The notes under the pieces: model-generated
Seen by the model: the letters and a program-made list of their open reading frames with translations, nothing else
What the model was told of the DNA's origin: nothing
Databases searched by the model: none
NCBI GenBank assembly: GCA_008632985.1
Contig: QPGO01000049.1
Location: forward strand, 248,001-312,000
Direction of reading: 5' to 3'
DNA: 64,000 bases
DNA from: Psammoneis japonica
Lineage: Eukaryota
Position numbers and translations under genes: made by a program
Shown: positions 4,331-64,000 of the stretch, piece by piece
Layout: every line of letters starts with the position of its first letter
Position numbering within the stretch: the stretch's first letter is position 1

Positions 4331-4334
4331 GAAA

Positions 4335-39200: not shown

Positions 39201-41409
39201 GATTTGCTTCCGCTGCCACGCCTTCAATCCTTTGGAAAAGCTCGCTCCTTCTCACAACTCTCTCTCCCTGGCTTTGTGCCTCTTCAAAGTCCATTCAACA
39301 TGGAAGGAGAATCGGTTTATTTCGTGCCTGCTTAAGAAGATGCGCGCAGCTCCCAACAACCTTCGAACTGAAGCTGTTGCGACTCTTCTCTTCTTGGCAA
39401 CCACCGCACGAGGTTTTCCAATTCTTGGATCCAATCTGCAGTCGTGATGAGTGTCAGTTTTGTGGAACAAAAAGGACCAGGTTTGGAGGCAGCTGGCCAT
39501 TTGCTCTGGCCATTCTTGCCATTGCTGTTGTTGCACTGATCAAGGCTGAGCCAGATGTGAACAAAGTCAGGAAAAGGCAGTGAAGCTTAAGAGACTACAA
39601 ATTGGATGCCCTGCCAAGCTTTGTGATCATGCCATGCTCCTTGGTGATTGCAGTGGGTGCAACATGTGTCTTTGACTGCAGACAACTTCAACTCATGGGA
39701 TTTTGCTTGATTTTGAGTGCCCTTCATGTGTGGTTGCTGTCTGCCTTGCCAATTTTCTGTCAAGTTGATTTTCCTCATGACATCCATTGGCATGTGCATT
39801 GTGACGGTGCATGACACAACATTTGAAACATCCACAAAACTGGGATTTTACATTGATGACAATGACCCCATGGCAAGTGCAATTGCCAAGAAGTGGCCAG
39901 TGGCAAATTGACTGCATTCATCGCCTGCACCTTGGGTGGCAAACAGAGACACTCAAACAGGTCTTTCCTGATGTTTGAATGGAGTCCCAACTCAGCCATG
40001 TGTGCAAAAGTGAGCAGTTTTTCTTTGTTTGTGACTTTCTCAAGTTTGTGGAAGGAAAGATTTGCTCACTTCAGGACTTTGCTGTGACTTTCCCATTGCT
40101 TGTTTGAAGGTGAGTTTTGCAAGTGCTCCACATCATGTCAAAGATGTGAATTGACTCATTTTGGTTTTTTCTGGATGGGTTTCTGTGCCAAGGTGATGTG
40201 GGAAAATGCCAGCAAGGTCATGCAAAACAAGGTGCATGACACCATCTATGAAGAGGTTTGCAGCATTGTCATCAAGATCACTGACGACTTCAGTGAAAAC
40301 ATCAACATGAGGCATCCTTGATCTTGAGCAGGTCATGCTTTTGATGCTGTCATCAAGAATTGTGCAATCACAAGCATGATGTTTCTCAAGGTTGCCAGAG
40401 CTGAGTTTGCACTCATCAAGTGCTCGGGCATGTAACTTGGCTTCCTCTTCAGCATCATCCAGAAGATGGTCACATGGGTGCTCCACCCCACGCAGTGGGT
40501 TTTGACCTTCTTTGGCTTCCTCATTGGCCACATGACCAACTGGATTGAGATCAAGCTCATTTTCAACACATGCAAGCCACAGTGAAGCTCTCCCCCATCA
40601 TCCAGGGCCTCTTCTTCAAGTGCCAGGTTGCTCGTTCCAGCAGCAGGCGGGAATCCGTGTGACATTGGCCCACAGAAATCTGTGTGCAAGCTCCACAGCA
40701 AAAACAATCACCAGGTGATGAATGTGTCAATGACTGCCAACTGCCAACAGAAAAAGAGGCAATTTTGCCATTGCACAAACTCATTCATGATTGAAGCACA
40801 CCATTGCTCACTCAGCCAGGTGCATTTTTTGACATTGAAGAATGTGTCAGGCACATTGTTGTTCCCATGAATTTGTCAAGCAAAACATCTGGGGCTTCAC
40901 AAAACAGCGAGTCTAGAACCATTCTGTGGGAGATGCAGAATTGCACATGGAGAAAAAATGCAACAGATGACAAGCTCATCAAGCCATCATTGCCATGCAC
41001 TTCAGCATGCTGATGGCCAGCAAGGTGCTCAACTCTGACAACATTGTGAAGATGGCAAGTGAAGGCAAGACAAGCAAGCACTTGATCAACATCATGATCA
41101 AGAAGAAGTTCTGTGGCATGGTCTTGCAGAAGATCCACAAAGAAGGCAGCCTTCTCCATGCGGGACAAGCTCCACTTGCACATGCAGGCCCTTGATGCAG
41201 AGTCATTTGAGGGCATCCTTTGTCTGGCATTCCAGGAGGACAATGCATCTTTTGTGCAAATTGTGGAAAAGAACATCTTTGCACCAAACACCTCCTTTTT
41301 GTGTTTTGTGTCATGGGCCATCATTTTTTCAAAAGATTCATGTTGTTTGAGCAGCACTTCCTTCCAAAAAAACAAAATGAGGGCAAGATTTTAACCCTGC
41401 CTGATGGAA

Positions 41410-41650
41410 CACTGGTGTCTGGTCAAAATCCAACTGGGGTTGTGGAGCACACAAAAATGGAGGATGGCCAAGAAGTGCAAGTGGCTCAGCCACTGGCTGA
41501 GTGGTCAAGTGGCGCCACCATTTCTGACTTCTTGTTTTGAGACACACCAGACTCTCCAGCAGCACAACAACAAACACACAACAAACTGTCCCAGCAATGG
41601 CAATCTTGTCAGAGCCTGCAGCGGTGCTGGACAACAAATGCTGTGGTGCT
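41410..41650 (+). pseudogene. Third, short copy of the TM9SF 3' end and downstream DNA
   Basis: LVSGQNPTGVVEHTKMEDGQEVQV versus LVSGQDQTKMEYVKMEDDQEIQV; the 3' flank also aligns with 38510-38650. Confidence 0.75.
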
Positions 41651-42536
41651 GAAGATTTTGCAGAGGACACTCCACTGTGATTTTTTTGTGTTTGCTTTGT
41701 CTGTTCCAACACTCCTCATGTGCCACCAGATTCTCTTCAGGCACTTTTCTCTTGCTCTCACAGCAGCGCCAATGCGTGCCCACACCAACCCTTGCACACA
41801 TGTTCAAGGCCATTGTTCCACCCACCGCCACAGCATTGTGGCAGCCGCTGAGTGCGATGGTTGGCAGCACACCGCAAATCCACAGCCAGGTTGGAAGCTG
41901 GTCCTGTCTTGACCCATTTTAAGCCCAGTTTGGGAAAAAAGTGCACCTCTTGCTCTCTTTCTTCCTCCCTCAGCACATGCGCCAATGCTCCGGGCCTGTG
42001 GTGACACAGGATTTGCTCGGGACAGAAAACGATGACAGAACAGAAGAAAACGATCTCGGAAAGTTGTTCTCTTCCTTTGAATGATTGAAAATGACCCAGT
42101 CATCTGCCAACACATTTGTTTGACAATCACGGTCCAATTCACGACTGCCGCAGGTTGCACGACCAGTGCAACTAGCTGGTGTGTTGTGCGTGAGTCGTCA
42201 ACGTGTTTGCAAGCCGCCGCAATTACTCGCGCGACGACATGGGTTGCACTGCACTCTGCCACCGGCAGGCAGAGGGGTTTCTTTCCAACAGCATTTCTTT
42301 TCTGTTCTGAAAAGCCTCACCACCTGCTTCATGACACATGAAAGTGATCACAAGCCTTGTGCGAAAGAACTGGGCACAGGGGATGGCAACAACAAAGCGT
42401 TTTTGGAACCAAAAGTTTTGAGAAGATCCGGCACCATTGCCAGCAACAGCGCACGCTCCCAACATGATGATCTTCTTGGGCACAATCCGTTGCAGCCTTT
42501 GTTGACAAGGAAAACTGGTTTCAAAGAAGAGCATGA

Positions 42537-43385
42537 TTGTTCGATGACTCAAGCATGTTTGGGGGGCTTGAGGCAGACACTGACGTGGTTGGCGCTGCCA
42601 GATTTCCTGGCAAAACAACCGCTGTAGCCCAACCCATGTTTGTCAGAACAACGTCAGGGACCACATGCGATGCAACCAATGAATCCGTCATTGCAGAGCA
42701 GCATCGACTGATGACCAAATTCGAAGTCACACCACCTGTCATGCTGCGAACCACTTCAGGAGGAGTCTGCGACTCCACTGACAAGGACACAGTGAAAGAG
42801 CAGGAAGAAATACCAGCCCAAATCCATCTCACAACAAAGTCCATTTCAGAAGACGCAATGGAGGCTAAATGCAAAACTGCACCACTTTCACCACCTCTAC
42901 ATTCGAAAAGAGCTTCGTCTCAGTCAGACTTGTCAGCGGATTCCGAGACACAACTTGAGATTTCTGATGTTGCAAGAGCAAAGAGAGAGAGCGCAGTGAC
43001 AGGTTACACAAAAGAAGGCAAACCTGGAGATGTGAAACTGTCAAAGCAAGTGCACGCTGGAAAGACTGTCCGAATCCGCAAAAGCATCAGCGACAGGGAG
43101 GATGGCATCACTCACCGCAACGATGTTGCTGTTCAGTGCTATGAGTGCTTTGAGTGCTCTCTAGTGTCAGCGGATGCAAAGGTGCTCTGTTGCCCACTGT
43201 GCCACATGCTGTCTCCCATTGACCACAATTTACAGCTTGAGGTGGAGAATGCCAAAGGGGTTTTGTCCACAAGCCCTCGACATGCTTCCTCGCAAGTCGA
43301 TGAAGCCACTGGTGCAATTGTCGCAAAGAAGCTGGCCAAGTACAAGAAGAACATTTCAAGCGTGCGGAACAGTGCCGATTGCTGA
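42537..43385 (+). CDS. Hypothetical protein with C-terminal CxxC...CPxC zinc-ribbon motif, partly TpA-converted; 5' end uncertain
   Basis: 282-aa ORF, VQCYECFECSLVSADAKVLCCPLCHMLSPI; retains more CpG than its flanks. Confidence 0.45.
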   Translation: MFDDSSMFGGLEADTDVVGAARFPGKTTAVAQPMFVRTTSGTTCDATNESVIAEQHRLMTKFEVTPPVMLRTTSGGVCDSTDKDTVKEQEEIPAQIHLTTKSISEDAMEAKCKTAPLSPPLHSKRASSQSDLSADSETQLEISDVARAKRESAVTGYTKEGKPGDVKLSKQVHAGKTVRIRKSISDREDGITHRNDVAVQCYECFECSLVSADAKVLCCPLCHMLSPIDHNLQLEVENAKGVLSTSPRHASSQVDEATGAIVAKKLAKYKKNISSVRNSADC

Positions 43386-44389
43386 TGCCGGTGCTGACAT
43401 GTGTCAAATGACATCTTCAGTCAGTGGGCGACACATCCAGCTCACAGATGTGCTCCACACCGGGTTTTCACTGAGATGGAAGAGCTGTTCCAGAATGGAA
43501 TCGACGTGAAGCAAGCCATCCAACAATTTTGACAATTGGTCAGCAAGTTTTCACATGTGCTGATGTTCTCCTCTTGAGCACTGTTCTTCATGCTGATTTC
43601 ACAATCACAACTTTGGTCCATTCATGTCTGTGAAAGCCAAAAATGTTGCAACTAGAAGGAACATTGTAGAGAATTCCACGTTCAGCCTTCTTTCATCACA
43701 CCCGACGCACTCCCCTCACAGCCGCACTGAAACGTTTTGCCATTCGCAAACACACACCAGAAAGAGGATGAAAAGATCGACACTTTGAGATCTCGAGATT
43801 AGGCTGTGCCATGATCAAACCTTTTCCAGCCAAAATGCCAACATTGCTTGCTGTGTTTTTCTCTGATGAGTGCATCCATGAAAAGAGAGGTGAGAAAAAA
43901 CCCAAAAAATGAATGAAATCTCCTTCCTGTGATTTTTTGCTGTGTTGCTCAGACTCCACTCTCTCGCAAACTTGCGGCTTCAATTTTGGTTCATTCTCAA
44001 CAGATTGAAGAGTGGCAGCAGCAGCAGCAGCAGCAATGGAGGTGGAGGTGATGCTCTCAGAATGTCAGGGAGACTGCCCTGTTGGAATCTCCTGCAGAAG
44101 TGCACGACCTTGCATGCAGCACACAAGCGTTCAGAGATCCTCGTGTGTGAAGAGCACAAATCAAAGAGTTGCCGTGCAAGTGCATGGATGCTGGTTTGTT
44201 TGCACCAGCAGTCATGCTCACCCTGCAGGGATGGTCAGGGAGCTGCTCCTAAAAATTGCACAGCCATTGCCGACTGTTGCCCACCACAAGCTTTTGCAAT
44301 GCCTGACATGCCTTTCAACCCACAACCATGAACAGGGTCAGAGCGTGACGTGCGTGGGTGACAAAACAAGTGCATTTCTGCATTGACAG

Positions 44390-45870
44390 TTGTGGGTGGA
44401 GACACTGCAGAGCTGACAATTCCATGGAAATCTCAACCACTGTTGAAAGAAGCAATTGCCATTTTTGCCATCACCGCTGCTTCCAGCCAATGTTGTTTTT
44501 GTGGTCCTGATCTTCTGCCAGAACCTCTTCCACATCGGCCTGGTGAACCACCTTGCAATTTTGTGGTGAGAGATGGGATGATCATAGAAATGCTCGCACT
44601 CCTCTTCAATTCAATCATCCAAAACAATGTGAGTTTGCAGAAGGCTTTTGGATGTTGCCGATTCATTTGTGCACATCCGATGCAGCCGCACATCCCAAGC
44701 AACATCCCACAAGTGAACAATCAAACCAGATGCCCATCTCAGGCCCATGTTGCATTGCTCCAGACAGTCACAATGCTCCTGTTGAGCATGAGCCCACTCA
44801 ACAACCAGAAAGCCACAGGCAAAAAAACATTCTCCAACTGTCTGCTGTGCAAGAAAGATCTCTGTTGCAAGTTGGTGTTCTGACTGAGGTGTCAGTTGAG
44901 GGATCTTGTCATGCCATGATGCAAGCAGTTGAATGATGCCAAGCTTGATGTCAGGGTGAGTGTGGTGCTTTGTCAGCCACTCCTCCAGGCCTTCCAGTTT
45001 TGTCAACCACAGTTCTTGGGTGGCAAAAGACTTGCATCATAGAACATGACTCTCCTTGCATCTCAGACAAACTGGACTTTCTATTTTGTCCCATCTGTGA
45101 AGATTGTTCTTTGCAAGAACAAAACCGGTGAACCGCTTTGGTTGCCACAAGCAGCAGAAGGTGGGGCATCATTGCATTGCTTTTCCTGATGTGTTGTCCA
45201 GTTGATCTCAGCATGGGTTGGCTCTGCTTTGATTTTTTCTGTCCAGTGCTGAGAGGCGGAAGGTCCACAGATGTGATCTAGAAGTCATGGCTTGTCCCAC
45301 TGAGTCATTGGAGCTCCTTGCGGGGTCACTCCCAAAGCAAATGTTCCCATGTCAGGTGTGCTCAACAAAGCTTCTCAGCGTGTTTTTTCACTAACAAGTC
45401 CATTTCCATGTTCATCACTTCAAGACAGGTGAGTTGACTGAGATTTGCTTCCCGATTTTGGTGCCCTTTGATCTGTGCCAGTGAGACAATGATCAGAATC
45501 TCCTGAATCATGCGTGCTGATTGGACAAATTGGGTTGCAGTTGGACTGTCTGGTGTCATCACAGTTGTTGACAAAGCATGTGCTCAGCACAGAATTGCAG
45601 TCACATCCCAGGACAATTCCACCTCTTGTGATGTGCGCAGTGTCTTGCACAATTGTTGCAGCTTCTTCCAAAGAGTCCCACAAATGCCACCTGGCTCTCC
45701 CTGGTGTGCACTCTGGTCAATTTCTTGGCATGGTGTTTGATTTGCTTCTTGGCATCTGTGAGAGTGGCTCTCTGATGGGACAAACATCATTGCAGCTGTC
45801 ACCATCTTGTCCTCAAAGGAACCATCATCTGTGATGCTGACAGCCATGCTGTCTTGAATGCCCTTTGCCA
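44390..45870 (-). mobile_element. 3' fragment of an RNase H-containing diatom LINE (Ambal-like), degenerate
   Basis: AVSITDDGSF...DQSAHQGEPGGICG...GIVLGCDC RNase H-like; C-terminal AQQTVG...GFLVVEWAHAQQ...GLRWASGLIVHLWDVAWD. Confidence 0.7.
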
Positions 45871-45871
45871 G

Positions 45872-46300
45872 GGCCTTTGCAAACATGCAGGGTTATGCAG
45901 CATTTTTAACTTTTGCCACTCCAGGAAACAAGGCACAGCCAGACCCAAATGCCCAAGCATGAGTTCACTTCCTTCAACTTGCAGAACAGAACAAATTAAG
46001 AAAACAGGTTGAAATGGTGCACATTTCTGGGTTGGCCATTTTTGCAATGATGTTGTCCTGAGCAGTGAAGTGATTCTGATTCTCACTCAGAAAATTGAGA
46101 TCCACAAAATGCAAAATGGCAGCAACTGTTGCTGCTCTTTGATCTTGTTGCCACATCCATTGATGCGATTGTTGCAGTGTTGATGGTCTTCAATCTTTTG
46201 TGCTGTAAAATGCTGCTGCTTTCCTTGTCATGCATTGCAGTTCTTTTTCTTCTGGTGGTTCTGCCAGTGCAGCCTCGTGCAGATTCATTTCAAGAAGACA
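45872..46300 (+). pseudogene. Degenerate copy of TRM61 3' end, intergenic DNA and TM9SF 5' end
   Basis: ggaaacaaggcacagccagacccaaa and gcagttctttttcttctggtggtt shared with 36027-36460. Confidence 0.92.
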
Positions 46301-46589
46301 GTTCTGCATGTAGAAGACCCAGCACAGAAAGCCAAGACCCAAAGGCTGTCCAGCTCACATCAAGCCTTCAAGGTCCAAGCTCCCAACAGTTGTCACAACC
46401 CAAGTGAGGCAAGGCATTGCAACAGATGATTTTGTGCCAACCACTGCTGCTGAAGCTGATTGGATTGGCTTTGCATCAAGGTGCAAACCAGGCTGGGCTG
46501 TTTTGTGCCACCACTGGACCATGCCATTTTCCACCTCTTGGTGTTCATTGTGAAAGAGCACCAGCCAGATGATGCCCTTGTTGGCTCAG

Positions 46590-48200
46590 CTTTTGCTGAC
46601 ACACTTGGCAGGATCTTCTGCTGGTTGGGCAGCACCAGCATCAGATCTGTTGCTCATGCCATCTGACCAATTCATTTCATTGCAACACTTTTGCACTGAA
46701 ACATCCTTCTTGTGCTTTCTTTCTTTGAAAATTGCTTTGTGCTGATCAACAAACAGAATGACACAAAGGTCTTTTTTGGTGATCAACTTGTCCATCATGC
46801 CATTCTTTGCCACCATCTTTCTTGAAGCCTCTGGGTGCAAAATTCAGCATTTCCCTCCCTCTGCACTCTTTTTCTTTTTGGACTTGTCTTCATCAATGTG
46901 CCTTGTCTCTGCCACAGAAGATGCCAGCTGGAGACAGTTCTTGAGTCACTCCGGTGCCTTCTTGTCATTTGCAAAGCAACAGCGTGCCAAAATGTCACCC
47001 AGAAAGTTGAGTTTTTGCTCTGGAAGCTTCTGAGTGGCCCCAGTTGCACCAGCAAGCTCCACAATGTTTCAAGCATGAACATCAACAGAACTGGGTGCCA
47101 GAAGTTCTTGCCAAGTGCTTGTGATTTCCACGTGCATCAAGAGCAGTGCTGGGCATGAGCAGAGCTCATTTTGCTCTTTGACAACAACTTTGGATCTCTG
47201 CAAAAAAATTGGGTCATGTGAGCAAATGAAGCCTTGCCATGCAAGCCCAGCAGCTTCAATTGAAAATGGTGGAGACCATCTGTGATGTGGCCAGCTGACT
47301 TCAGGGCAGCTTCAATTTCTGTGTTTGCTTGTGAGGGCTGCTCCTTGTCACACTTTTTGGGCACCTCCCAGTCAAGGTGATCTGGGTTCTCTTTTGTGAG
47401 CTCACAGCAACCTTGCAAACTCTGGTGGTCCTTGAGGGGGATCTTGAATTTCTCTGGAAGGTTCTTGACACACTCAAGGGTGAACCTGCCATGGTTGTCA
47501 ATGGATTGAACCACAACCTTCTTGGCAGCTGGCAGAATCCCATGCCACCAAGATGGAAGAAGCAGGCACTTGTCAGTGACAGTCTCAGGCTTGGGTGCTT
47601 GTCCTGCCTCAGTGAGTGGATTTGTCTTTTTACACCACTCTGGAAAGGAAACCCTGGTGCTTGGACAAAGATTTGCTTTTTGGAACAAAGATTTCTAAGT
47701 CTCCTTGCTGGTGCCATGGCAACAACAGAGGCCTGCTGCTGGCACAAGACCTCGCTGATCATTGACGCACTTGGAGCACTTGACCAATCCTTCCTGAGAG
47801 AGGGTGTTGTTGCTCTTGGCAACAAACAAGCTGCACCCTTGCAAATTCAAGCTCTTTTGAACTTGTTGGTCATGTTGCCACTGCGCTGTGCACAGCATTT
47901 CACAATGTCCACCAAACCCATCAAGTGTTTCAAGAAACCACCGCTGTGGATTGTCACAAACAACTGGAAGACTTCTGTGTCCTTTGACAATGTTTTGGGC
48001 AATTGCATCCCATGCTTGCTTGGTCACAAAAGCACTTGGCATCATTGCAGTCATTGATCCTGGCTTTGCACTGTGTCTTGCAAGAAAATTGTCTGCAAAC
48101 CCCACCAATCATTGCTCACCAGCCAAGCACCATGCGGTTGGGCCCACACCACCACTGGCATTTCCTGCACAAACCATTGTGGCCATGCAAAAAGGGGCTC
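46590..48200 (-). mobile_element. Degenerate DDE (pogo/Tc5-like) transposase
   Basis: GSMTAMMPSAFVTKQAW...PQRWFLETLDGFGGH and FQKANLCPSTRVSFPEW, recognised from memory as DDE_1-like motifs; several frameshifts. Confidence 0.55.
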
Positions 48201-50824
48201 TTTTTGCCATGGCAGTTGAGACAGGGGAGATTGGAGTGGCTGCAGCAGCACCAAGTCTTGAAACAAAAGACTGTGCCCATGCCACAGAGCAGTTGGCTTG
48301 ATGACCAAATGTGAAGCCTCACATTCACTGCTTGGACACCTGGCCAAACAAAGAAGAATTTTGGAAGCAATTTTTTGGTCAGGATGTTGCATTTTGACTT
48401 GGCCTTTGGTGCGGGACCAACCAAATTGTTCACACACTGTGGGCCACTCATGTGTTGATTGTTGTCATGCAGTCTGTGATTTGAAGGATTGTGTGTGACA
48501 CAATGGCAAATTGGACAAGTCACATGCAGTTGATGCTCTTGTCTTTGGGAGACTTGGCAGGAAGAAGAGCACAAGCAAAGAAGTTGAAGATGTCAAGAAC
48601 AGCAAAAAATGGAAGAATGGCAACAAGCACATTCAAAGGTGGGCTTGTGACACATGCATCACTGCTGCAGGCACTGAGTCAAAGTCAGAGAAATTCCATC
48701 ATGTTGTCAAGCATTTTGGGAACATCGGTTCCAGAAGCACCCTTGTTGATGCTCTCTGCCTTGCTGGGACTTGCAAGCACAATGCAGGAATGAGAGAGCA
48801 TCTCCAAATCAATGGCATGCTGGCTGACAAGCATGCCAAGATTTTGCATTCCTTTTAAGGCACACCCACCTTTCTGAATCACAGTTGCCTTGGCTGCAAC
48901 AACAAGCTGGCAAAAAAGCTGGAGATCAACATCTGGTGAACAAGAATGTCACAGAGCTGGCACAAGAAAATGGAGAAAAAGCAACTTGAGCATTTGAGAG
49001 AGGAGCTCAAGTCAAGGAAGGTGCCAGACAACAGCACCCCCAAAAACATGTCATGAGACAGATGCATGTGCAACAACAAGTGTGGCACAAAACACCCATG
49101 TTAGACAGTGCCAACTTTGTTGAGAACTCACAGAAAAGAAAATCAAAGTCACAGCAACAGCCACCATCTGAGGAGCTGCGCACAAAAAATAAAACCTTTG
49201 AATTTGCAAGAGAAGGTGGCCTTGCCACAAAAACCACTGCCAGTGCCAACTGCACAGTGCCCCATTCCATGTTGCCTTCCAATTGCTGTCATTCCATTTT
49301 GGAACAGCTTGCCAACATTTTTGCCACCTTTCCAGATGCCGCCAAATCTGCAGCTGGATCTGAGCCAAAAATTCTGTTGTTTCTAAGCACCAGATTTTCA
49401 CCTTTCAAAAACAAACTTTCTGGGGCTGGCCACTCAAGGAAAAGTGCCACATGATGAGTGTTGTTCATCACCAAAGCAGCCTTCAAATGAAAATGCATCA
49501 TTGCAGTTGTGCTTCCATCCCACATTGCATCTGGAATTGGTGCCAAGACAGAAGATGGGAAACAGTGGGCAATGGCACTTGAACAAAACCAACCCTTGAA
49601 TCTTTTCATGTGCAATGGATTGATGTCCTCCATCTTCAATGCCACAAAAATGCAACAACAATTGAGCCACGCCCTCACTTCTGCCATTGCTGCACAAGTG
49701 CTGCACCCTTCTTCTCTCTTCCTTTCCCCAATTTCAGGAGCAATTCAAATGACACTGTTGGAGACATCATGGATCTGAAGCTGCAGTGGTGTCAGAAGAA
49801 TTTTGCTGCTGGGACTCCATCATTTGCTGTGCCAAAAGATGACAAGTCTGTGTCTCCACATTCTGTGCACTGTGAGACTGAGGGTGTCACAGTTTGTGTT
49901 GTGCAGTGGGAGCCAAACAGCATCAGCATTGAGTTGATGTGCATGGATTGTGGGGGCAGGCTTGTGTGCCAACAATTTAACATCAGAAGAGGCTGTTCAC
50001 TTGCTCCTGTTTTTGACATCAGAGGCACCACTGATTGGGCTTGCTCTGTGTGGTGCAAATGTGATGTGAGTGTGGATTGTTTTGCCTTGGCAATGCTGTG
50101 CAGCTCAAGCACTCTTTGCTGCTGAACCTGCAGACAGCCTGTCCAGTCAGTTGAAGGTGTGCCTCCACAAAAAAACAGCTTTCACATGACAAAGGCAACC
50201 ACATGCTGCACTGATCATGTGATTCAGCAACACAGAAATGGCCAGGCAACGTTGGTGTTCCTGCACCAAATGAGGGCTGCAGCCTGCAAGGACATGGAGA
50301 TGTCCTGTCATTCACAACCAATTGCAGAATCTAAGTCAACGCAGGCACTTTCCAAGTTTGAAGATTGGGTTGAACAACACATGGGCCAATGCCATCTCAG
50401 ATGAGATGTGTCACACATTCTCTTAGAGATGCAATTGGTTGTGAGAAGCACAAGTGATGCAAGTGACTGTGCCTTCATCAGTTGAACAAGAACTGCTCTA
50501 AAACTGAAGCAACTGGGCTGTTCATGGTGGGGGTTGTGACTGGTGAGATTGGCTCTGCTGTTTGTGTTCCATCCTTGGAAACCAAGGGCTGTGCCCACAC
50601 AGCAGAACAATTGGAAAAACAGCCAAATGTGCATCTGAAAGTTCATTTCTTGGATGCTTGATCAAATGACAAATTGTTCTAGAAGGAAATGTTTGACTGT
50701 GATGTGAGTTGTCATCTCAAACCATGGCACCAGATGAGCTGCATCACTTGGACATTGCAGAAGACACATGCTGAGACTTTGGAAGGCAGTTTCAGACTTG
50801 AAGCTTGCTGTGCATTGTGGCAAG

Positions 50825-50993
50825 TGTCAGACATCCGAGATGGGGAGTGCACTCCCTTGTGTCGGACAGACTGGCACAGACAGCATGGAGAGATCCGATG
50901 ATCTCTCCTTTGCTCACTTTCTTTCTCATCTAGTGCACGATTGTCATCTGTCCCAGACATCCGTTAGATTGTCCCGATGCCACTAGTCCGCAA
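50825..50993 (+). repeat. 5' LTR
   Basis: 161 of 169 positions identical to the 3' LTR by manual alignment. Confidence 0.95.
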
Positions 50994-51195
50994 GGTTGTG
51001 AGCAGCAGTGTGCTGTTCCTCTTCCTCTGTGCTCCTCCACTGCAACGCCTGTTGTGTGATTTGGCGACTTTTTCTTCGTTGAAATCGTCATCATTGTCAC
51101 AGCTGTTTTTTCACCTCTCGATTTGTGATCAAACGACCACCGTAGAACACATGCCAGAGCTCTACGTGGGAATTTGATTTTTTTCCCGCGCAACC

Positions 51196-54100
51196 ATGGT
51201 GAACAAAAATCAAAACGTCGTCGATTTGACCAAGATCAAGACGATGCAGGTTGAATTCAGCCCACACAATCGCGTGCCCGATGCCCACATTTTCCTGAGT
51301 GCTCTTTGTTTGGACGAGATCCCTGCTCCTGAAGATCTTTTGGATGAATTTGCCCCTCAAGGCCTCAAGAGCGACGCTGTTGCTGTCCTCCGACATGAGA
51401 TCGTTCAGAATCTCATCATCCCTGAAGCTCTCCAGACTGAGGATCTTGCATGAATTGGACCCATCATTGAGAAGGCTCCTCTCTTTGTGGCTGCTCCTCA
51501 AGGCCCCCCGGTTCGTCTGAACCTTGGCACTCTTCAGAAGACTGTGATCAAGGCAATTTCAGAGAATGACGATGCCATGCATCTGTGTGTTGGGACTCTG
51601 CATTTCCATTTCAGCCCTCGTTTTCGACATCATGATTGCTGGGATGATGTCTCCGATGGTCCGTGTCCGGATCCACCGACCACTTCGAGTTCTGCATCTG
51701 CACCAGTTGCTGCCACAGGTCCCACTCCCGAAGACTTTGCTGAGGCCCCAGCTTCTCACTCACCTGGTCCAAAACAGTTTGAGCAAGCTGTCACAAACGC
51801 GTTGAAGAACTCTGCTCCCAAGGTGTCGTCTCCTGCACTGTCCACCATGACCACTGCTGGCATGGCTTCTTCATCGACTGCTGCTGGTGCCACACACACC
51901 TTTAATCTGAAAGGACTTCCAAAGGATGTGCTGGCCCGCCATCAGTGCAAGGAAGCTGGGAAAGTGGCACTTGGCAAATCCCTGGTGCCCTGCAAGTCTG
52001 GAAACCTTCATTGCGAGGATGGTGCTGAGCGTCTCATCCTTGCTGATGGTTCACTCTTTGTTCATTGCACTGACTGGGACGCGAAATCATTCCTTCGCGA
52101 TCCTCTCACTTGTGATGACATCTCTCCTCAAGGAATCCGTGCATGGCACATTGCTGCAACCCAACAAGCCTCGGCTTGTGGTGCACACATGCATCCTCTG
52201 TGGTGTTTTATCAAGGATGGTGGAAATTGGGGTTTCACTTGTGGCAATGATCCCACCGATGATCCACCTCTCCGGATGACGGCAGCACTTGACCAAATGA
52301 AACTGACCATCTTCCAGTGCATTCAGAAAGTTGGAATTTTTCCGGCAGACTCCAAGCACCCTGACATCGTTCGCCAATGTCATGGTGATGGACATGCAGC
52401 TGTAAGATGATTCTCTTTGATGTCCTGCCGATTTGGACGAAGCGTCCATGTGAGTTGATCAAGAGCCACCCGCACCAAAACAACCTCATGGTCCTTGGCT
52501 GTTGTGCTCCATTCAGAGACTGCCTTCAGCTGCAAGCTGTCATCTCCAATGTTGATGCATCTCTTGATGACCCTGGTGAGCTTGACATTTTTCTCAGCAA
52601 TGCCCACTGTGGCGAGTGCCTTCACCGTAAAACAGTGGATGCCCAGGAAGACAAGACCCAACAACACAAGTTCACCCAGAAGAAGATTGTTGAAACTGTT
52701 GGTGCGATTCTCAAGGAACCGGGTGGTCCAGCTCTACTTGTCAAGGACCCTCCCAAATGTCCTCCACGTCGTCTTCACACTTCGCCTCCTCCTCCTCTTG
52801 CAGCTCCTGTCCGCGGTCTTGAATTGCTTCCCCAGGATGAAGTTTCTACTCCGCCTCCAGCGATTGAAGAGTCTCCCAAGGAATCTGCCTCTCCTCCTGC
52901 GGAAGAACCTACGGAAACTGTGGAATGCTTTGTAAATGAACTTGCTGCTGTGGATGTTCCTCCAGATGATGATGCACAAGCCCTCCATGGTGTCCACAAG
53001 GCCTGCATCCATGGGATCAAGTCCTCGCCTGCCACTGCACAGAACCGTCCATGTGTTGTTTGTGGCAATGACCACTTGTTCCACGAGTGTCCTGTGTTGA
53101 ACAATGCTGAGTGCCTGCACACCCATCTCATTTGGTTCTCCCAGTTTCTTCAACGTGACCAGCGTGCTCGTGATGCACTTCAGTCTGGCACGGCCAAGAA
53201 GGATTTTTCCTGGGGCCATTGTCATGTTCGGACAAACAATGCTGCCCATTCTCCTCCAATCCGAAAACTCCTGCAAGCGGGGTAACTGTGAAAGAGGGTC
53301 AAAATGACTTGTTGCCTTCCGCTGATCCTCCTCTTTCACCTGTCTCATTTGCTGCCCTTCTTTCGAGCTCGACGAAGGCTGGTGCTCCTGATCCCAAGAC
53401 GATTCCTGATGATGACCCTGGTGATCACAATCAGGGGAGGGAATTCGATCCTCCTACATTGGACACTGATGCTCCATTGTCCACTGATCAAGACCAAGCA
53501 TTTGAGTGTCTTGACATGACTGACACCCAGCATTTGTCGCCTCTCAGTGCCGTGCGCATCTCCCCAATTTTTTCTCCCCCGGAGTCACCTGTGACCTTTG
53601 CATCCTTGACCACCCCAGTCGTTCCCATCAATCATGTGCTTCGTGATTCAATGATGTGTCGTGCACAGATTGATGCTGGTGCTTGGGTGTCCTGTGCAGG
53701 GGACAAGAACCTCCTCCACGCACGTGCTCCTTTTGGACCGGATGACCCATGCCCTTTGAAGATGCTTCCGGCTGCTGAAGGCTCTGGTGCGGTTCCTCAT
53801 GGCTTTGGATGCCCACAGGTGCCTGCAGACAACCCCGAAGGCTTTCTTCTCGTACGCACTTTTTACCATCCCAGTCCACGATCCACTTTGATTGATGAAC
53901 GTGATTTTGCGCGGGCTTCTGGTTTCAAATCTCAGTCCATTTGATCCGAGCTCCTTGAGAAGACATGCGCCGATGGCACTTGCACTTACACTGCTTCCAC
54001 TGACACACAAGCAGCAGTTGTCCATGGCACACTTCGACATGGCAAGGCATTCACACAACCCCTGATTCCTCCGTCTCCATCTGGTGTCCCCTCGACACCG

Positions 54101-57100
54101 ACGACCCCTGACTTGTCCTTGGTTGACGACGTCAATGATGCATGTCAATGTGCAGCATTTTTTATCAACGTCCAACAAGGTCCATCTGATCCCTTGCTGA
54201 TGGATGCTGAGCTGTTTTCGGTGCAGTGTGACTCGGCTCCGTTGTCCACCCTGCTCCTGTCTGCTCTCTCAAGGTTGAGACTGAACGTCTTCTGTGGCAT
54301 CAACGCCTTGGACACCCCAGTGATCGCCACTTGTGCAATGCTCACAAGTGCATCAAGGGTGTCCCCAAGTTCCGTCATGCTGGTCCCGTCCTTGACATGT
54401 GCCCTGCGTGCATCCAAGCCAAGCAAGTCAAGACTCCTGCTGGACCGAACACGACTTGGAAGGCGACCCAACCATGCCAAGGTCTCACTGTCGATTTTGC
54501 TTTTGCTGGCCAGACTTCCAAGAATGAAGCCCGCAAGGTTGATCATCTTGGACACAATGGTGAAACATGTTGGATCACTGTCTGTGATCATCACACGCGG
54601 ATGCTCCATGGTGTAGCGAGGGTTTCAAAGGCCAGTCCTCTCAAGTGGCTTCGCCGATTCTTGGATCGACATTCACTGAATTGTCGTGACAAACATGCAC
54701 TTGTGGACCACAGTGGGGAATCATACAAAACCCCAAAGTTCGTGACCTCTTTGAACGAGAATTCCAGTGTGACATCTGTCCTTCTGGCGCTGGCGCATCC
54801 AACCAATGTGGGCCTGTTGAATGCTCACATTTGACTGTTGAGAACGCGATTCATGCGATTTTAATTGGCGCCAACCTCCCGATCCGATTCTGGCCCTGTG
54901 CATTTTATCACTGCCTCCGTGTCAAGAATGCCACTCCTGCAAAAGATCAAGATGCGGCACCTGTCACTCTTGCTGCCAGAAAGGTCAAAGATTTTACTGC
55001 TCTGAAGACTTTCGGATGTCGAGTGTGGTCCAAACGGTCCACTGCTCGTTCTGCTGCCTTCCGGGCCAATTCCAAGAAGGGTGTCTTCCTTGGTTACCTT
55101 CCCAACACCCTCAAGAATGTCATGTGGTGGGATCCTGAGACTGATGAAGTCAAGACAGCCAAGCATGTGCGCTACGATGAAGGTGTGAATGACCCACTTT
55201 TGGATCAACTTCCTCCCAATGCTGTCCATTTGCAGCATGTGGAAAATGGTCAGCCTTTTCCAGCTGAAACACAGGACACCACCATTCCCATGTTTGCGTC
55301 TTCGTTGAATCCGTTTGCTGCGACCATTGCATGCACCATGAAACGTCCTCCAAAGGACCCTGCTTGTGGTTTTGGATTTTCTCAGTGTGCGCTAATGGAC
55401 CGTGTCCATGTGTCGGAAATCAAGCAGCGCAGTCCTGCGGCTTCATTGTTTTCTTCCCTCCGTGCTGCTCGCAACAAGATTGTGGGTGCATGTGTTGTCT
55501 CTGTCAACAAGCGTGAAGTCTTTACTCCTTCGGATGCTGAAGAGGCCTCATATCAGGTCTTTCATGATAAAATTCCGACTTTCGAGATTGCTTTTGCACC
55601 GGAACGACGATTGGATTCTCGCACTCTTAACAAGGCATTTGAGGAAGCGGAGTTGTTTGAGCCGGACACTGTGGAGGACGACTCTCATGTTCCTGAACTT
55701 GCTTTGGAGGATGTGCGATCTGTTGTGGCTCTTCTCTGTCCCGATGATGATTTTTTGGATGAGGCCATTCCTGCAGATGCATTTTATGCACATCTCAATG
55801 CGATTAGCTCTCGCTCACTCACTCCGGAGGAAGCTGCTCTTGACCGTCTCACCCGTGCCAAGCTTCGTAAACTTGACACATGGCCTGAATGGGAAGAAGG
55901 CGAGCAGCGTCAACTGGACCAATTTCATGCCCTGGGTGTGTGTGGTCCTCCACAACCATGTCCCCCTGGCGCGAATGTCATGCGTCCGCATTGGGATTGC
56001 ATGGCAAAGCCGGATGGCCAACGTCGCTCCCGACAATGTGGTGATGGTTCCAAGTCGGCAATGCCGGCCTTGCATGAGTTGACTTCCACCTGTTCGTTGT
56101 GTGTGGAACGTTCCATCAAAAAGATGTTTTTCGCTCTCAGTGCGGCCATGTCGCATCTTGTCTTTGGCGGTGATGCACGGGATGCCTGCACTCATTCTCC
56201 TGGCCCATCCCAACTGGTTTTTGTTGCTGTTGATGATGCACATGCCGCCTGGTGTGAAAAACGATTTGGCAAGAAAGCACCCCGCCACTGTGTTCTCCCG
56301 CTCAAGTGTGCTCTTCAAGGCCATCCTGAAGCTGGTGTCCTCTGGGAGAAGCACATCAATTCGATTCTCATGGGTGCGAAACTTCTTTTCCGTAACACTG
56401 CTCATGATGAGTGCATCTGTTCCGGTGAATGTGATGGTGTCAAGGTCCTCCTCCTTCGTCAGGTCAATGATTTTGCTCTTGCTTGTCCATCTGAAAAGAT
56501 TGCAAAAGAGATCTACGACCACATTGGCAGGGCTCTCCAGATGGAGAATGAGGGTGCTCCTCCCTTCAAGCATTTGGGCTTGGTTGCTGAATTCAATGGC
56601 ATTGATGTCATTCAAAATGACGACTCAATCACTGTCAACGTTGCCAGCTACCTTGACCGTGTTTTCAAGACCCATGGTTGGGACACTCCCGCTGCACATG
56701 AGTCTGATTCTGATTTCAAGGCCACACCTGTTCCGGTTGATTGTGTTCCTGATCTGCACACTGCTGAAGGTCCTGAAGAGGGCACACCCGAGTGTGACAC
56801 TCTTGCTGAGTCCCAAGGATTCTCGCATCGTTCTGTCTTGGGTGAACTGGTCTTTGCCCACTCCTGTTGTCGTTTGGATGTTGGATGTCCTGTTGTCACC
56901 TTGTCCAAGTTTTCCAAGGCACCGGCTGAGCTCCACCATGATTCACTCAAGCGTGTGGCCAAGTGTTTGCGCCGTGCCAAACATTGGGGACTGACCTGCA
57001 AGAAGTCTAAACGCGATCCCGGCCTGCCTCCTCACGATTTTGAATGGCTTGAGGATGACCCATCTCTCCCGGATTTTCCTCGTGCTGTTGACCTTTTCCA

Positions 57101-57568
57101 ACTTCTTGGATTCATTGATGTGGCACATGGCAATGAACTGTGGCGTCGCCGTTCTGCTGCTGGCTGTGCGCATGTCCTTGCTGGTGCTGCGATTGACTGT
57201 CGATGCCGCACGCAAACGATCACCGCTGCTGGTTCCACAGAAGCTGAGTTCCTTGCGGCTGTAACTGCTGCAAAACAGACCCTGCACCTCGCATGGTTCT
57301 GGAAGAATTGGGTTTTCCCCAATGTGGCCCCACTCCCTTGCACATTGACGACTCCTCTGCCATCCAGATGATCAACAACAAGGTGCCTACGGAGCAATCT
57401 CGTCATGTTGACACTCAACATTTTGCTGTCCAAGACTGGCGTGACGTGGGCAAGATTGTCACTCAACATGTCCCGGGTGTCATTGACCCTGCTGATGCAC
57501 TGACCAAGGCCGTGGGTTGGATGCTCCACGCCCGCCATGCCCGCCGCTTGTTGGGACACTGCCGTTGA
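51196..57568 (+). pseudogene. gag-pol of the copia element, broken by frameshifts and stops
   Basis: CVVCGNDHLFHEC knuckle; QIDAGA protease; LWHQRLGHP; QGLTVDF integrase; ALQGHPEAG and RQVNDF RT; STEAEFLAA and PADALTK RNase H. Confidence 0.93.
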
Positions 57569-57709
57569 TTGTTGTCGGGTTTGTTGTGGATTGAGTCTTG
57601 GGTGTGTCTCTGTTTTATTTGTTTTGTTCTTTGCCATTCTGGTCCTCTCTTTTCACTCGGATCGTCTCTTTCTTTCTTGTTGAGCATTGCATTGCTCATC
57701 AGGGGAGGG

Positions 57710-57878
57710 TGTCAGACATCCGAGATGGGGAGCACACTCCCTTGTGTCGGACAGACTAGCACAGACAGCATGGAGAGATCCGATGATCTCTCCTTTGCTC
57801 ACTTTCTTTCTCATCTAGTGCACGATTGTCATCTGTCCCAGATGTCCGTTAGATTGTCCCGATGCCACCAGTCTGTAA
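57710..57878 (+). repeat. 3' LTR
   Basis: Follows the polypurine tract and is followed by the target-site duplication. Confidence 0.95.
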
Positions 57879-58007
57879 GCAAGGAGCTCAACAAAGCAAG
57901 AGCAGTTGGGGCATTGCCTCTGACAAGCTGAGCAGGAAGCAGCACAGCACCAAAGAGATCCAACAGTTCAAGGAGAGCAAGCTGTGGAAGAATCATCATG
58001 CTCCTGA

Positions 58008-59655
58008 ACAAAGAAGGGCATCACAACAACTGGCTCCTCAATGACACCTGCCATTGGCAGGCACAGGTCATGGTCCCCACAACATGCTTGCAAAGTGCCA
58101 TGCCAACAGGCGCTGCAGCCCTGCTTGGCTTTGTTGATGTTGTGCCCAAGAGACCCTGCATTTCAACCATGTCAACACTCACAGCATGGATTGTCATGCC
58201 AGTGCAAATGGAGGACACAGCATTGTCAGTTTTGCAGTGAAACCTCCAAGTGTCCAGCACTGTTTTGCAGAAGGAAAGTTTGATTTGGGCAGCATCTCCT
58301 TGGACAGCCTTGCCAAGCACAAGAGTGCAACTCCTGTCTGCAGCTTTGGTGGTTGTGTTTTTTAAAATGGTGGGTCTTTTGAGTCTGGCAAAGGCCAGCC
58401 AGGGCCAATTGTCATTTTCTGCTGGATGCATTTATCCTGTCAGGCTTTCTGAATGTGAGTGCATCACAGTGCAGTTGAGCAGAACTTTCATGAAAGAGGA
58501 GTGGTGTCTGCCTTGCATCTGTCAATGTGGGGCTTGCCTTTCATCACCTTTGCCTTCTTTCCAGCAAAGCAGCCAATCCAGCAAAGCAGCCAACAGGAAT
58601 CATTGTGGCTCTCAGAGCCATTGCATGGAAATTGTGTGGAACTGCAGCACCAAGAACAATTGTCATCAACCTGTCCATCCATCTGCACCTGAATGTCAAC
58701 TTCTTGGGAAATCAATTGAAACGTTGTCTGATCAAAGGCGTTGCTCTTTGCCATGTAAATCAAGGTGCCTTTGATCAAATGGCATTTCAACTGAGTTCCC
58801 ACAAAGTCATTAGCTCTGATCACTCTCTCATGTGACACTGTGTGCTTTTCCACATGATTTTGCATTTTCTCTTGTGTGAAATGTTGGTTGTGGCTGATGT
58901 GACATTTTTGAATGATTTCTGTTGCAAGTTCTTTTCTGGATGGCATCATCAACAGGTGCTGTTCTGCTGACTGCCCTGCCATTTTTGGCTGTGCTGCTCT
59001 TGCTGGTTTCTGTAGACTTGACCCACTTGGGTGGCTTTGTTGGATGCAAATGGCAATTGTTGGCAATGTGTTAAACCAAAACAAGCTGTCTAGAACAAGC
59101 AAACAGTCTCGGTTGTGCATTGTGGTTGTCTTGCTGCCATTCAATGTTGTGCCTTGCTTTGGCTGTTGCAATGATGTCTTGTCAAGCACAGCTGCTGCTG
59201 GTCTTCCTGTTGTGGTGGGGTCTTTGTGCTCCTGATTGGAGGTGCCTTCACCTTTGGGTGCATGTGTGTCAAGTTGTTTTTCATCCTGACAGATGTCTGG
59301 ATGGGACAGCATTGCTCAGTGTTTGGATTTCTGTTTTTTTTTTGTTGTCTGCATTTTGACATCATTGACTTGTGCTGGAGTGTCAATCCTTTTCAACTGC
59401 ACTTGCCACTGAGTGTGCAGATGAGCACTGCAATTGGTGGTGGCAGTTTTTTGACACTGGTGCAGCATCAATCTGGCTCTGGAGGTGATGAGTTTTCTGA
59501 CTCCTGTCTTTTGTGCTTTGGATCTGTGGCATGGGGTTTGTTCTTGGAGTTGTCTTTTTGGCAAAATTGTCCCATCTGCTGGCATCTGGTCAAGATCAAA
59601 CTGGGGTTGTGAAATGTGTCAAAATGGAGGATGGCCCAGAAATGCAAGGGTTGTC
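58008..59655 (+). pseudogene. Degenerate copy of the TM9SF middle and 3' end
   Basis: 58008-58319 aligns with about 36705-37007, 58320-58571 with 37411-37668, then an insertion 58572-58923, then 58924-59655 with 37666-38505 (MLLIGGAFTFGCMCVKLFF versus MLLIGGAFTFGCIYVELFF). Confidence 0.93.
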
Positions 59656-61592: not shown

Positions 61593-61599
61593 GCAACAA

Positions 61600-62990
61600 G
61601 GACAAAACAAAGGAGTGTTTTAGCTGGAGAGCACAGTGAGGGCTCTTTTCCAAGCATTTGTCAAGTAAAATTTGCTGATTGCGCAGCTGGTTTGCCCCAT
61701 TTAGTTGACAGGCAAGCTGGGGCAATCTCTCCAGTGCTTTGAATTGCAGCACTGCTTTGCAAACTTCCTTTGCCTGGTGTTTTTTTTCTCCTTGGCAGGC
61801 TCAGACTTCAACAGCAGAGGCACACTGGTGTCACTTGTGGCGCTGACCCACCAGGTGGCTGTCTGGCTGCTCCCCACCCCCAGCCAGAAATCCATCAAAA
61901 GACTGCAAGGGCAGTGGTCTTGTTGTCCCATCAGAACAAAAAAAGGACTCCAGAGCTGGAATGTGCAGTGGCAGTGCATCAATGACAAAACACCATCTCT
62001 CTCAAGACTGCTTTCAATGCAACCTTCCTCTTTCCACAAACCAACAAACATCGCAGGTGGGAGTGAGCACATGCAATGGGATGGACAGCTGGATGGATCT
62101 GGCACAACAACCTGATTTTGGCAAATTGAGAATCCCAACATCTGGGTTGCTTTGGGTGGGTTGGACAGCCACCACCTCCTGGTTGCTTGAGGCATCACAT
62201 GTTGCACACACAAAGCTGGGTGTTGTCATGCCACATGATGTGGCACTTTGAAGTTGCACCCCATGCAATGCTCAGAACAACAAAGAAGTGCATCTCATGC
62301 CATGGAACTTGATTGTTTGTACATCAATGGCCACAAAGTTGATCAAGATGAGAGTTTTGTCATCACACCACAACAAGACAGTGGAAGATTTTGATGGTTG
62401 TGCTGGATTTCTTGGCACTGTTGACTGTCATGCCACATTCAGACACGCCAACAAACAGTGTGTTTGCTGACTTCCACAGGGCTCTCACAACTGCTGCGTG
62501 AACAAGTCCAAAATCACTGGGTTTGTTTCTGCTGTGCAGCAGATGCAATCATCATCAGCATCTGAGGAGTGCACGTGCACCGGCATGAACAGAGTCATTT
62601 TTTTCTTCCAGCTTCCCATGGCAGATGCACAAAATGATGTTTTGATTTCCGGTGTCAACAATGCATCTTGCACGATGTGGCAAGAGGAGCACTTGAATGT
62701 TTTTTTTCTGAAGAGAGTGGAGGAGCGCCAACTTGTGTGTCAAATGCAGCTGTTGGATGCTGTGAACAATTGTCGGCACCCACGACTCTCTCACATCGAA
62801 TGGCAGTTGTGTCCACAGATGACGCCATGCATGGATGAGATCAGCTGCACTTGCTTCTCTCATGCCCCCATCTCCCCTTGTTTGGGAAGTTTTTGCTTCC
62901 TCATCAAAGAGGCAGTCTCAGCCACAACACCTGCCTTGTTCTTTTCCACCCTGCGGTGTCAGCGCAGCTTGGCTGTGTGATGTGGCACAT
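61600..62990 (-). mobile_element. Possible degenerate LINE 3' fragment
   Basis: AADLIHAWRHLWTQLPFDVRESWV resembles the RNase H region of diatom LINEs; otherwise eroded. Confidence 0.35.
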
Positions 62991-63037
62991 GATGTGCTTT
63001 GTCACGGGACAGTGCATGAAACCCAACAGTGCAACAA

Positions 63038-63290
63038 GGCCTGTTCCAGCTCCAGGTGCTCCTCGAAGGTTCGATTCCCATCTTTTGTGCATTTGGCGCA
63101 ATTGACTTTTTCCAAATCCGTTTTTTGCCAAATCGAGGGGCAAGTGCACTCTTTGCATGTGTTTTCGGGTGCACACTCACCTCTTGATTTTTGAAACGAT
63201 CAAAATTGAAGGAGTCAATTGAAGCCAAACTGCGCAGAAAATCGGCCTCTCTCGCGATGAAAAGCGGATCACCTGGAGCTGGAACAGGCC
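63038..63290. mobile_element. 253-bp MITE-like element
   Basis: Perfect 21-bp terminal inverted repeats GGCCTGTTCCAGCTCCAGGTG (63038-63058) and its reverse complement (63270-63290); no clear target-site duplication. Confidence 0.7.
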
Positions 63291-64000
63291 ACAAGTGGGA
63301 GCTTCAAACCACCGGCGATTGGATCTGGAATCAGCTCGTTGAGCTCATTCCAAATCCATGCTCAAATGGATCGGAGTGCGCTCTCTCTGGCCTCCGCTGG
63401 CCAGTGGCTGCTCTCTGCTGCTGGCTGCCAGCTGGCTGGCAGCAGCGGCAGCACAGCCAGCGGCTGTCCTTCCTTGAGTCTGTGCGTCGTCCACACAGGA
63501 ACTAATTTTGCCCCCAGCGGACACTCTGGGTTGAGGATGGATCGTCCAGATGATGTCTGTTTGCGCATGAGCTTGCATTTTTTTGAAAAAACCTGGATTT
63601 CTCACGCTGGATGCGCGTGCTCGCCAACAAAACATTTTCAGCGATGGGCCGAACTTTGTCCCTTTGAAAGACATCACAGAAGGTGTTGGTGATGGTTGTG
63701 ACCATGCGCGATCTTTAGCTTGACGACTGTGGGTGTGTCCACAGACAGTCAAACGCCAGTTGTCGGCATTTCCTGGAAAGTCGTGGCTTGTCTCCCATGA
63801 GCAGTGCGATTTTGGCGAAAAATGGCGGTTTGTCGAATTTGACAACTGCACCGAATCCGACAATTGGCATTTGAAGGTTGAAATGTGCAGCTCGCATGCA
63901 GGCCCAACAGCCCTGATGGGGGCTGGACACACTCACAAGTGTTTGGGGGTGCTCAGAGGCATCGCAAAATGACACGGGCGAAGTGCAGGGAAATTGCAAA

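Follow-up and report, generated by a model that had tools for sequence, protein, structure and literature searches.

Remaining TpA sites in converted DNA of the diatom Psammoneis japonica are the slow end of a TpA-to-TpG/CpA process governed by two bases on each side

Remaining TpA sites and the TA-R-A half-site

The TpA dinucleotides (hereafter, TA) that remain in the converted DNA of the diatom Psammoneis japonica are the slow end of a process turning TpA into TpG or CpA, with a rate set by the two bases on each side. The stretch analysed (hereafter, the window) comprises 64,000 nucleotides, positions 248001–312000 of contig QPGO01000049.1 in the 91 Mb assembly GCA_008632985.1. Blocks low in TA and CG, and high in TG/CA, alternate in it with normal genes. 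For the tRNA methyltransferase gene of the window, the best relatives that carry a name are from diatoms. The protected unit is TA-R-A (R, purine) on either strand, and not YTAR (Y, pyrimidine), the context to which a sequence-only reading of this DNA had assigned most surviving sites. The flank bias described in that reading is real, but the YTAR label is too coarse.

A two-state segmentation called positions 39129–64000 (no strand) TA-low, and the TA density within 39600–64000 is 4.4 per kb versus 36 per kb in the TA-normal DNA of the window. One third or more of the sampled DNA of this diatom is converted. Conversion keeps to stretches of foreign or mobile DNA; the converted blocks are sharply bounded and the adjoining genes are unaffected. 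Alignments of converted gene fragments within the 39129–64000 block show TA>TG and TA>CA directly; the direction of change is given by fragments (57975–59648, +) of an EMP70/TM9 gene whose unconverted form (36328–38508, +) was used as the reference.

YTAR sites are enriched in the block but do not form the majority that had been claimed. They account for 45 of the 108 TAs in 39600–64000 (42%; 33/63 outside the Copia element described below and 12/45 inside it) and for 1250 of the 2515 de-duplicated TAs (50%) in 692 kb of converted DNA. The corresponding share is 89/649 (14%) where the window is TA-normal (Fisher p=1.3e-10 versus 45/108), 15% in TA-normal DNA covered by open reading frames (ORFs) and 923/4047 (23%) in non-coding TA-normal DNA, which is also below 42% (p=2e-5). 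The contrast with genic DNA is thus inflated, because genes avoid stop codons, but is not created in this way. Depletion of NTAN tetramers is non-uniform over the 10 strand-symmetric classes (chi2 81, df 9, p=9e-14). The reported near-absence of TAT, TAC, ATA and GTA holds in part, as TAT and ATA are strongly reduced (17/108) but TAC and GTA make up 48 of the 108 survivors. Alternation of purines and pyrimidines, put forward as the susceptible context, fails as a rule, with kept fractions of 0.28 for GTAC, 0.30 for CTAC/GTAG, 0.13 for ATAG/CTAT and 0.20 for ATAA/TTAT.

A TA-R-A half-site is present in 70 of the 108 TAs of 39600–64000, versus 146/649 in normal DNA. It is contained in all five sites given as examples by the sequence-only reading, four of which are in place: TCTAGA (40912–40917), with two protective half-sites and among the slowest hexamers, TTTAAG (41918–41923), TCTAAG (47694–47699) and GTTAGA (50963). 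The fifth, TTTAAA, lies at 58361–58366 and not at 58371, and its unconverted partner has TG, so that the TA here is probably new. The kept fraction of YTAR sites is 0.31 with no TA-R-A half-site, 0.79 with one and 0.96 with two; the values in a held-out set are 0.53, 0.55 and 0.88, respectively, and non-YTAR sites with one half-site are kept there at 0.81. Among the TAs of the 692 kb, the TAAA half-site is enriched 3.3-fold and TAGA 2.1–2.5-fold, TTTAAA, TCTAAA and TCTAGA are near the top of the enrichment, and the YTAR hexamer CCTAGG is absent. In a 450-bp repeat (family A, described below), TTTAAA is kept in 47 and in 46 of 49 copies and CATACT in 1/49, while GTTAAT, ACTAAT and ACTAGG are kept in only 5–11 of the 49 and are fast despite their YTAR context.

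YTAR sites are, as had been suggested, slower but not immune. Across 27 alignments of unconverted with converted DNA (9.7 kb), TA was kept at 17/57 YTAR, 2/79 RTAY and 5/157 YTAY/RTAR sites. In the 25 older pairs, the converted copies have 38 TAs in all, 19 of which are matched by TA in the unconverted partner and 19 of which are not. Many of the apparent survivors are for this reason likely to be new TAs, and the remaining sites are probably a mix of survivors and new sites.

The block includes a Copia-type long terminal repeat (LTR) retrotransposon (50824–57879, +) in which TA is nearly gone (45 sites) and CG decay is only partial. The sequence-only reading had noted changed CTAG sites in its LTRs, and these are found at 50873 versus 57757 and at 50984 versus 57869. 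In the 5′ LTR (50824–50994, +) the ACTAGC site is converted and ACTAGT is kept; in the 3′ LTR (57709–57879, +) the ACTAGT site is converted and ACTAGC is kept. TCTAGT and GTTAGA are still TA in both. Double differences of TG versus CA between LTRs or copies, at positions 50848 and 50958 and in Copia copies, correspond to TAs converted on opposite strands.

Per-strand rates from young repeats

Rates were estimated from natural copies aligned to one TA-rich natural copy per family. Family A is the 450-bp repeat (47 copies used), and families B and C (29 copies each) are the LTR and the inner parts of one young Copia family. The copies aligned were the best 29–49 by likeness of 134–940 candidates per family. 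The family A reference copy, two near-duplicates and one indel-polymorphic site were left out, as were columns in which a majority of copies depart from the reference; 34 of the 35 held-out copies fetched were used, L293 giving no match. The model consists of a rate per strand and an exposure per copy and block, and was fitted to 118 TA sites (3988 observations) with a site bootstrap and site-held-out cross-validation. In family A, 1158/1583 TAs have become TG/CA, as have 51/1124 CGs.

Models of flanking context beat the null on held-out sites, which bears out the enzyme-like preference previously proposed. The site-held-out negative log-likelihood was 4384 for the null, 4091 with the +1 base only, 3992 with −1 and +1, and 3854 with positions −2 to +2. 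Purely symmetric duplex models (4199 and 4162) were worse than the strand-specific one, and adding the ±3 positions gave no better fit (3895). A one-strand TAY rule is accordingly insufficient. That conclusion had been drawn earlier from the occurrence of both outcomes at YTAY sites, which are indeed seen (TG 107, CA 45); two-way change alone is, however, no valid refutation of a one-strand rule, because any graded preference yields both outcomes.

Rates taken directly from the repeat alignments depend on two bases on each side. Relative to A, the +1 base raises the rate 4.6-fold for C (3.3–7.3), 4.8-fold for T (3.5–9.9) and 1.4-fold for G, and a non-A base at +2 is 2.3–2.8 times faster than A. 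Immediately 5′ of the T, a non-A base slows the process to 0.43–0.64 of the rate with A, and at the second base to 0.32–0.52. The favoured strand motif is 5′-AAT[A]YB, with AATATT predicted to be fastest and TTTAAA slowest. From these flank effects it follows that a TA-R-A half-site slows both strands and that TYTARA lasts longest. Since AATATT and TTTAAA are both composed entirely of A and T, melting alone appears not to be the cause. Per-site rates in the young repeats differ more than 100-fold.

At 64 new sites the six-base model ranked rates with rho 0.49, versus 0.25 for the +1-only model, and direction with rho 0.55 versus 0.39; TG outcomes numbered 741 with 736.5 expected. For 42 sites of an unfitted region rho was 0.54. 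Across 136 hexamer classes, model rate and survival in the 692 kb, which includes some family copies, are related with rho −0.81. Neither local GC nor TA density accounts for the within-region residuals, and sites adjoining CG appear slightly slower.

The outcomes are of high purity, with 3854 TG/CA changes versus 16 single transversions (>99% transitions), and transversions are no higher than background. The A>G rate is 0.33 at TA, compared with 0.012 at AA, 0.011 at CA and 0.007 at GA, and non-CpG C>T is 0.001–0.005. Assembled copies of family C carry deletions of one base at TA (9/3918 versus 8/67558), which had at first suggested an abasic intermediate, a reading then dropped. No such deletion was found in family A, and short-read contigs, in which rare variants drop out and some TA sites have no variant row, showed none over a 501-base stretch holding four of the deletion places. 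The family C deletions (L191, L202, L193, L200) are probably assembly errors at variable sites.

Family A is represented in the window by a partly converted copy (31282–31732, no strand; L036:1501–1947) that was used for rates. The repeat has terminal direct repeats of about 115 bp, a tRNA-like internal box identified by eye and more than 300 candidates genome-wide. Its left terminal repeat converts faster than the identical right one.

Same-strand coupling of neighbouring changes

Conversion of a TA is often accompanied by A>G at neighbouring bases of the same strand. In three pooled sets, A>G at +1 occurred in 48/480 cases with TA>TG, 12/714 with CA and 0/1074 with intact TA; for A>G at −2 the counts, in the same order, were 27/595, 3/635 and 8/391. 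The coupled products are TAA>TGG, ATA>GTG and TATA>TGTG/CACA. No other substitution near a converted TA was coupled in the pooled sets, and no coupling was seen at offsets of 3 bases or more. The stratified z is 3.75 and 5.4, with replication on the held-out set at 3.18, and when each site is given one vote 32/39 are same-strand versus 17.9 expected (P=9e-8; some bases serve two sites). Native TGA shows A>G at background (6/2184, 0/328 and 23/3962), so the coupled change is not a second target made by the first. Pairs of TAs within TATA are likewise mostly same-strand (122/149, z 6.85), with 41 TG-TG, 81 CA-CA, 20 CA-TG and 7 TG-CA; stepwise change under the fitted flank effects would be expected to favour TG-CA, the rarest of these classes. 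Family B showed no neighbour coupling (0/98 versus 1/254) and has few fast sites. The same-strand coupling window spans about 4–5 bases and the effect fades within about 3 bases.

TA sites farther apart than about 3 bases are independent, with 570 same-strand neighbours versus 576 expected and |z|<1.7 in 7 of 8 distance bins. Both strands of TA are attacked and there is no consistent sense-strand bias. The same TA site is TG in some copies and CA in others, and the LTRs of an element differ from one another, which indicates change on both strands and after insertion.

Regional variation and spared elements

The overall TA conversion rate tracks CpG decay from region to region. In region 280–780 of family C, TA loss is 0.07 versus 0.33 elsewhere and CG loss 0.008 versus 0.028, and the context model still ranks sites within it. 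A TA-rich leader of family C, 5′ after the LTR (L188:1490–1990), is largely spared in most copies while the LTR and coding region are converted; in the L191 copy the pattern is nearly reversed.

A further element, family D (L218:1549–2469; L219–L247), escapes the mutator. It is 920 bp long and AT-rich with inverted ends, and nearly all of its 71 TAs are kept in 29 copies out of 134 candidates, even within TA-free flanks and despite 13–61 other differences. Its CpG decay is low and its non-CpG C>T normal. Being nearly unconverted, it was unusable for rates.

Because low TA loss goes with low CpG loss, and diatom repeats are CG-methylated, with loss of DNMT5a depleting methylation in P. tricornutum (PMC9998398), we infer that the process may be targeted to chromatin marked by 5-methylcytosine (5mC). 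The genome holds 27 C5-methyltransferase domain matches (C297, C301, C10, C28); several lie in clusters and some contain internal stops, a pattern suggestive of copies that are mobile or have expanded.

Candidate mechanism and alternative explanations

The candidate agent is a DNA adenine deaminase with a short footprint that would act in repeats probably methylated at CpG, a reading to which we give about even chances. In its favour are the context model with its held-out predictions, the same-strand coupling, the purity of the outcomes and the joint variation of TA and CpG loss; in addition, the TadA-derived editors (ABE7.10, ABEmax and TadA8e), which convert A to G, work best at TAY (PMC10879117). 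Such an enzyme would be recruited via 5mC-marked chromatin, would open or flip 4–6 bases at the TpA step of one strand, and would deaminate A to hypoxanthine, to be copied as G. Sliding by one or two bases could sometimes lead to change of a neighbouring A, and an A-tract next to the TpA step would hinder opening or flipping. A wider proposal, which we hold tentatively and consider somewhat doubtful as a whole, is that diatoms possess a natural double-stranded DNA adenine base editor, shared with rhizarians and serving genome defence, that acts on 5mC-marked repeats at AAT[A]YB, is blocked by A-tracts and changes 1–3 adjacent As per visit.

A natural candidate would be an enzyme of Tad2/Tad3 or TadA fold. 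The genome holds TadA-like, probable ADAT2/ADAT3 and other deaminase genes, none of them tied to the process. Two genes (L253, L255) are probably ADAT2/ADAT3-like, as labelled from motifs. The deaminase at L250:1327–2055 (+) is nearer to bacterial TadA (E 1e-30) than to ADAT2 and is perhaps the organellar enzyme. At L252:313–1785 (−) an HxE/PCxxC deaminase domain is fused to a DIOX_N/2OG-Fe(II) oxygenase, an arrangement conserved in many diatoms; this fusion, widespread in diatoms, gave no link to the process and was set aside. A search with Tet_JBP gave no match in this genome and likewise none in control genomes, so that it is uninformative.

Several points weigh against a deaminase governed by these flanks. 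A>G on one strand and T>C on the other are indistinguishable from sequence, and the deaminases found look like tRNA and metabolic enzymes of the usual sort. At +1, the mRNA editing of fungal Tad2-Tad3 favours a purine, the opposite of the motif here (PMC11156358). Wild-type TadA requires UACG within the loop of a tRNA (PMC10586758), and TadA8e, as reviewed in the latter source, is less strict about a 5′ T, the need for which is almost absolute here. With rho at about 0.5, the variance among sites is only partly accounted for by the model; the same context can differ several-fold between the two repeats of family A, and local CpG density gives no account of the within-region residuals. The copies were picked by likeness to the query and some are related. 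Of the 48 coupled events at +1, 25 come from one hexamer in family A, and coupling is weak in old gene/pseudogene pairs (+1: 8/37 versus 9/70; −2: 10/69 versus 7/65). The 101–300 bp bin of family C has a same-strand excess (z 2.3), and the strand term of one block excludes 1 (0.69, 0.45–0.92).

The thymine of TpA, and not the adenine, could conceivably be the altered base: an oxidised or alkylated thymine of 5-formyluracil or O4-methyl-T type, or T aminated to 5mC, would pair with G and give T>C, and the enzyme that places it at TpA would also strike neighbouring Ts, the motif then being 5′-VR[T]ATT. This accommodates all counts equally well, the strands not being distinguishable, and is in keeping with the 27 C5-methyltransferase matches, with TA loss that follows CpG decay and with the presence of 5-hydroxymethyluracil at TpA in dinoflagellates. 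Near-complete conversion at >99% purity would nonetheless require a strongly miscoding lesion, and oxidised thymines miscode weakly and in mixed ways, which counts against such an origin. As the +1 pyrimidine preference, moreover, matches TadA-type editors (PMC10879117), we consider a modified thymine unlikely. A shade less probable again is repair-like synthesis, in which a nick or gap at TpA is filled over 1–4 bases by a low-fidelity polymerase of Pol iota/eta type placing G opposite T, or an adenine glycosylase leaves an abasic site and REV1 inserts C. Either route would fit the doublets: Pol iota and zeta are known to produce tandem mutations, hypermutation has a hotspot at WA, and C is placed by REV1 opposite abasic sites (PMC6423074, PMC4995076). 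The genome also has 6 matches to the IMS family (Y-family polymerases), and AA>AG is slightly above GA>GG. Against these stand the excess of TA over AA by about 30-fold or more, a background level of transversions (16 versus 3854 transitions) where abasic bypass is described as yielding transitions and transversions (PMC6423074), coupled neighbour changes that are A>G only, the 5′ side included, and no coupling to nearby C>T.

The flank bias might instead be a mere by-product of stop-codon avoidance in the genic baseline combined with new TAs or insertion sites, and the lower YTAR share in ORF-covered than in non-coding DNA (15% versus 23%), together with the 19/38 TAs of old copies that are non-TA in the partner, points that way. 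The rates from young repeats need no genic baseline, however (TTTAAA kept in 47/49 versus CATACT in 1/49), and the context model predicts held-out sites. As a full explanation the by-product is refuted and its probability is minimal; as a partial contribution it stands. Hardly any weight falls either on editing of element transcripts by an ADAR- or Tad2/3-like enzyme with fixation by reverse transcription. ADAR and fungal Tad2-Tad3 do favour U at −1 (PMC11156358; bioRxiv 10.64898/2026.01.13.699255), but their preference at +1 runs the other way, conversion extends to copied fragments of genes, both strands are altered with no sense bias after context (TG 741 versus 736.5), and the LTRs of one element differ at TA sites. 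The LTR–LTR differences and the two-strand symmetry refute RNA editing.

Other features of the window

A converted copy of 36012–36454 is located at 45856–46297 (+) and one of the lipase-3 region 20316–21491 at 3237–4340 (+). These two, the EMP70/TM9 fragments at 57975–59648 and the segment 25676–26005 are shuffled pieces of genes 4–21 kb off on the same contig, and local pairs of genes and converted fragments of like kind are also found on other parts of contigs C50 and C1. With the carboxypeptidase gene as query, no converted copy was found. The element at 13838–20172 (−) has an RVT_1 reverse transcriptase; its GC and AT skews are very strong (about +0.4), and it has lost TA in part and mostly retained CG. 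When contigs were aligned to 39600–59000, single-copy differences were few, and one of these falls on a TA (45895 A>G).

Comparison with known systems

The process in the diatom appears to work like the TpA hypermutation of integrated nucleocytoplasmic large DNA virus (NCLDV) and virophage DNA in Bigelowiella natans (Mettrop et al., bioRxiv 10.64898/2026.01.13.699255), whose sequence-testable features it shares. In both, A>G/T>C changes are found only at TpA, on both strands and regionally, the targets are foreign or mobile DNA, and a deaminase is the hypothesis. The B. natans hypermutation has a rate of about 1000-fold per generation and is active in some lines only (bioRxiv 10.64898/2026.01.13.699255). 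The present case differs in its diatom host, in the third or more of sampled DNA that is converted, and in the CpG decay alongside. The main text of the preprint describes neither a flank rule nor neighbour coupling, although its Table S2 may hold such data. In our literature search, which left most subscription papers outside, it was the sole relevant report for the flank rule or the diatom case, and as to the agent it offers a candidate only.

The TadA-derived editors resemble the process in their preference for TAY (here, +1 C 4.6-fold and T 4.8-fold over A) and in same-strand bystander editing of neighbouring As to G (PMC10586758), both of which are observed here. They are products of engineering, depend on a Cas9 R-loop and tolerate bases other than T at −1, whereas the process here has a nearly absolute requirement for T at that position, responds to two bases on either side and shows coupling only from about −2 to +2. 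Fungal A-to-I mRNA editing by Tad2-Tad3-Ame1 offers the likeness of an ADAT-type enzyme retargeted by a cofactor with a strong U/T at −1, but its substrate is RNA with A/G at +1, in contrast to DNA with a pyrimidine at +1 (PMC11156358). Somatic hypermutation by Pol eta also mutates A in WA and gives tandem changes (PMC6423074, PMC4995076); Pol eta WA mutagenesis was rejected here, as TA outpaces AA by a factor of at least 30 and transversions do not exceed background. A process like that of APOBEC, which edits long single-stranded DNA processively, was rejected as well, there being no strand-coordinated runs over tens to hundreds of bases (570 versus 576 expected).

Ascomycete repeat-induced point mutation (RIP) likewise destroys repeats through dinucleotide-specific transitions. 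It acts by C>T and creates TpA, whereas TpA is removed here, strand-coordinated runs are absent, and family D is spared with more than 100 candidate copies. RIP was rejected, since in place of C:G to T:A change with gain of TpA we find TpA lost and non-CpG C>T at 0.001–0.005. RIP has been linked to DNMT4/RID (PMC9998398).

Taken together, the motif, the coupling window and the >99% purity constitute a fingerprint for testing candidates (ADAT2/3, TadA-like enzymes, a polymerase or a thymine modifier), and this fingerprint speaks against RNA editing, against Pol eta and against substrates consisting of long single strands. To our knowledge, A-to-G conversion of genomic DNA on such a scale has not been established for any natural enzyme; a natural double-stranded DNA adenine deaminase, if real, would bear on how genomes are defended, on base editing and on the evolution of diatom genomes. 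Repeat dating in such genomes is affected, because TA is lost far sooner than CpG decays or other changes arise. The base process is known from one preprint, and what is new here is the same-strand coupling of neighbours and the quantitative six-base rule.

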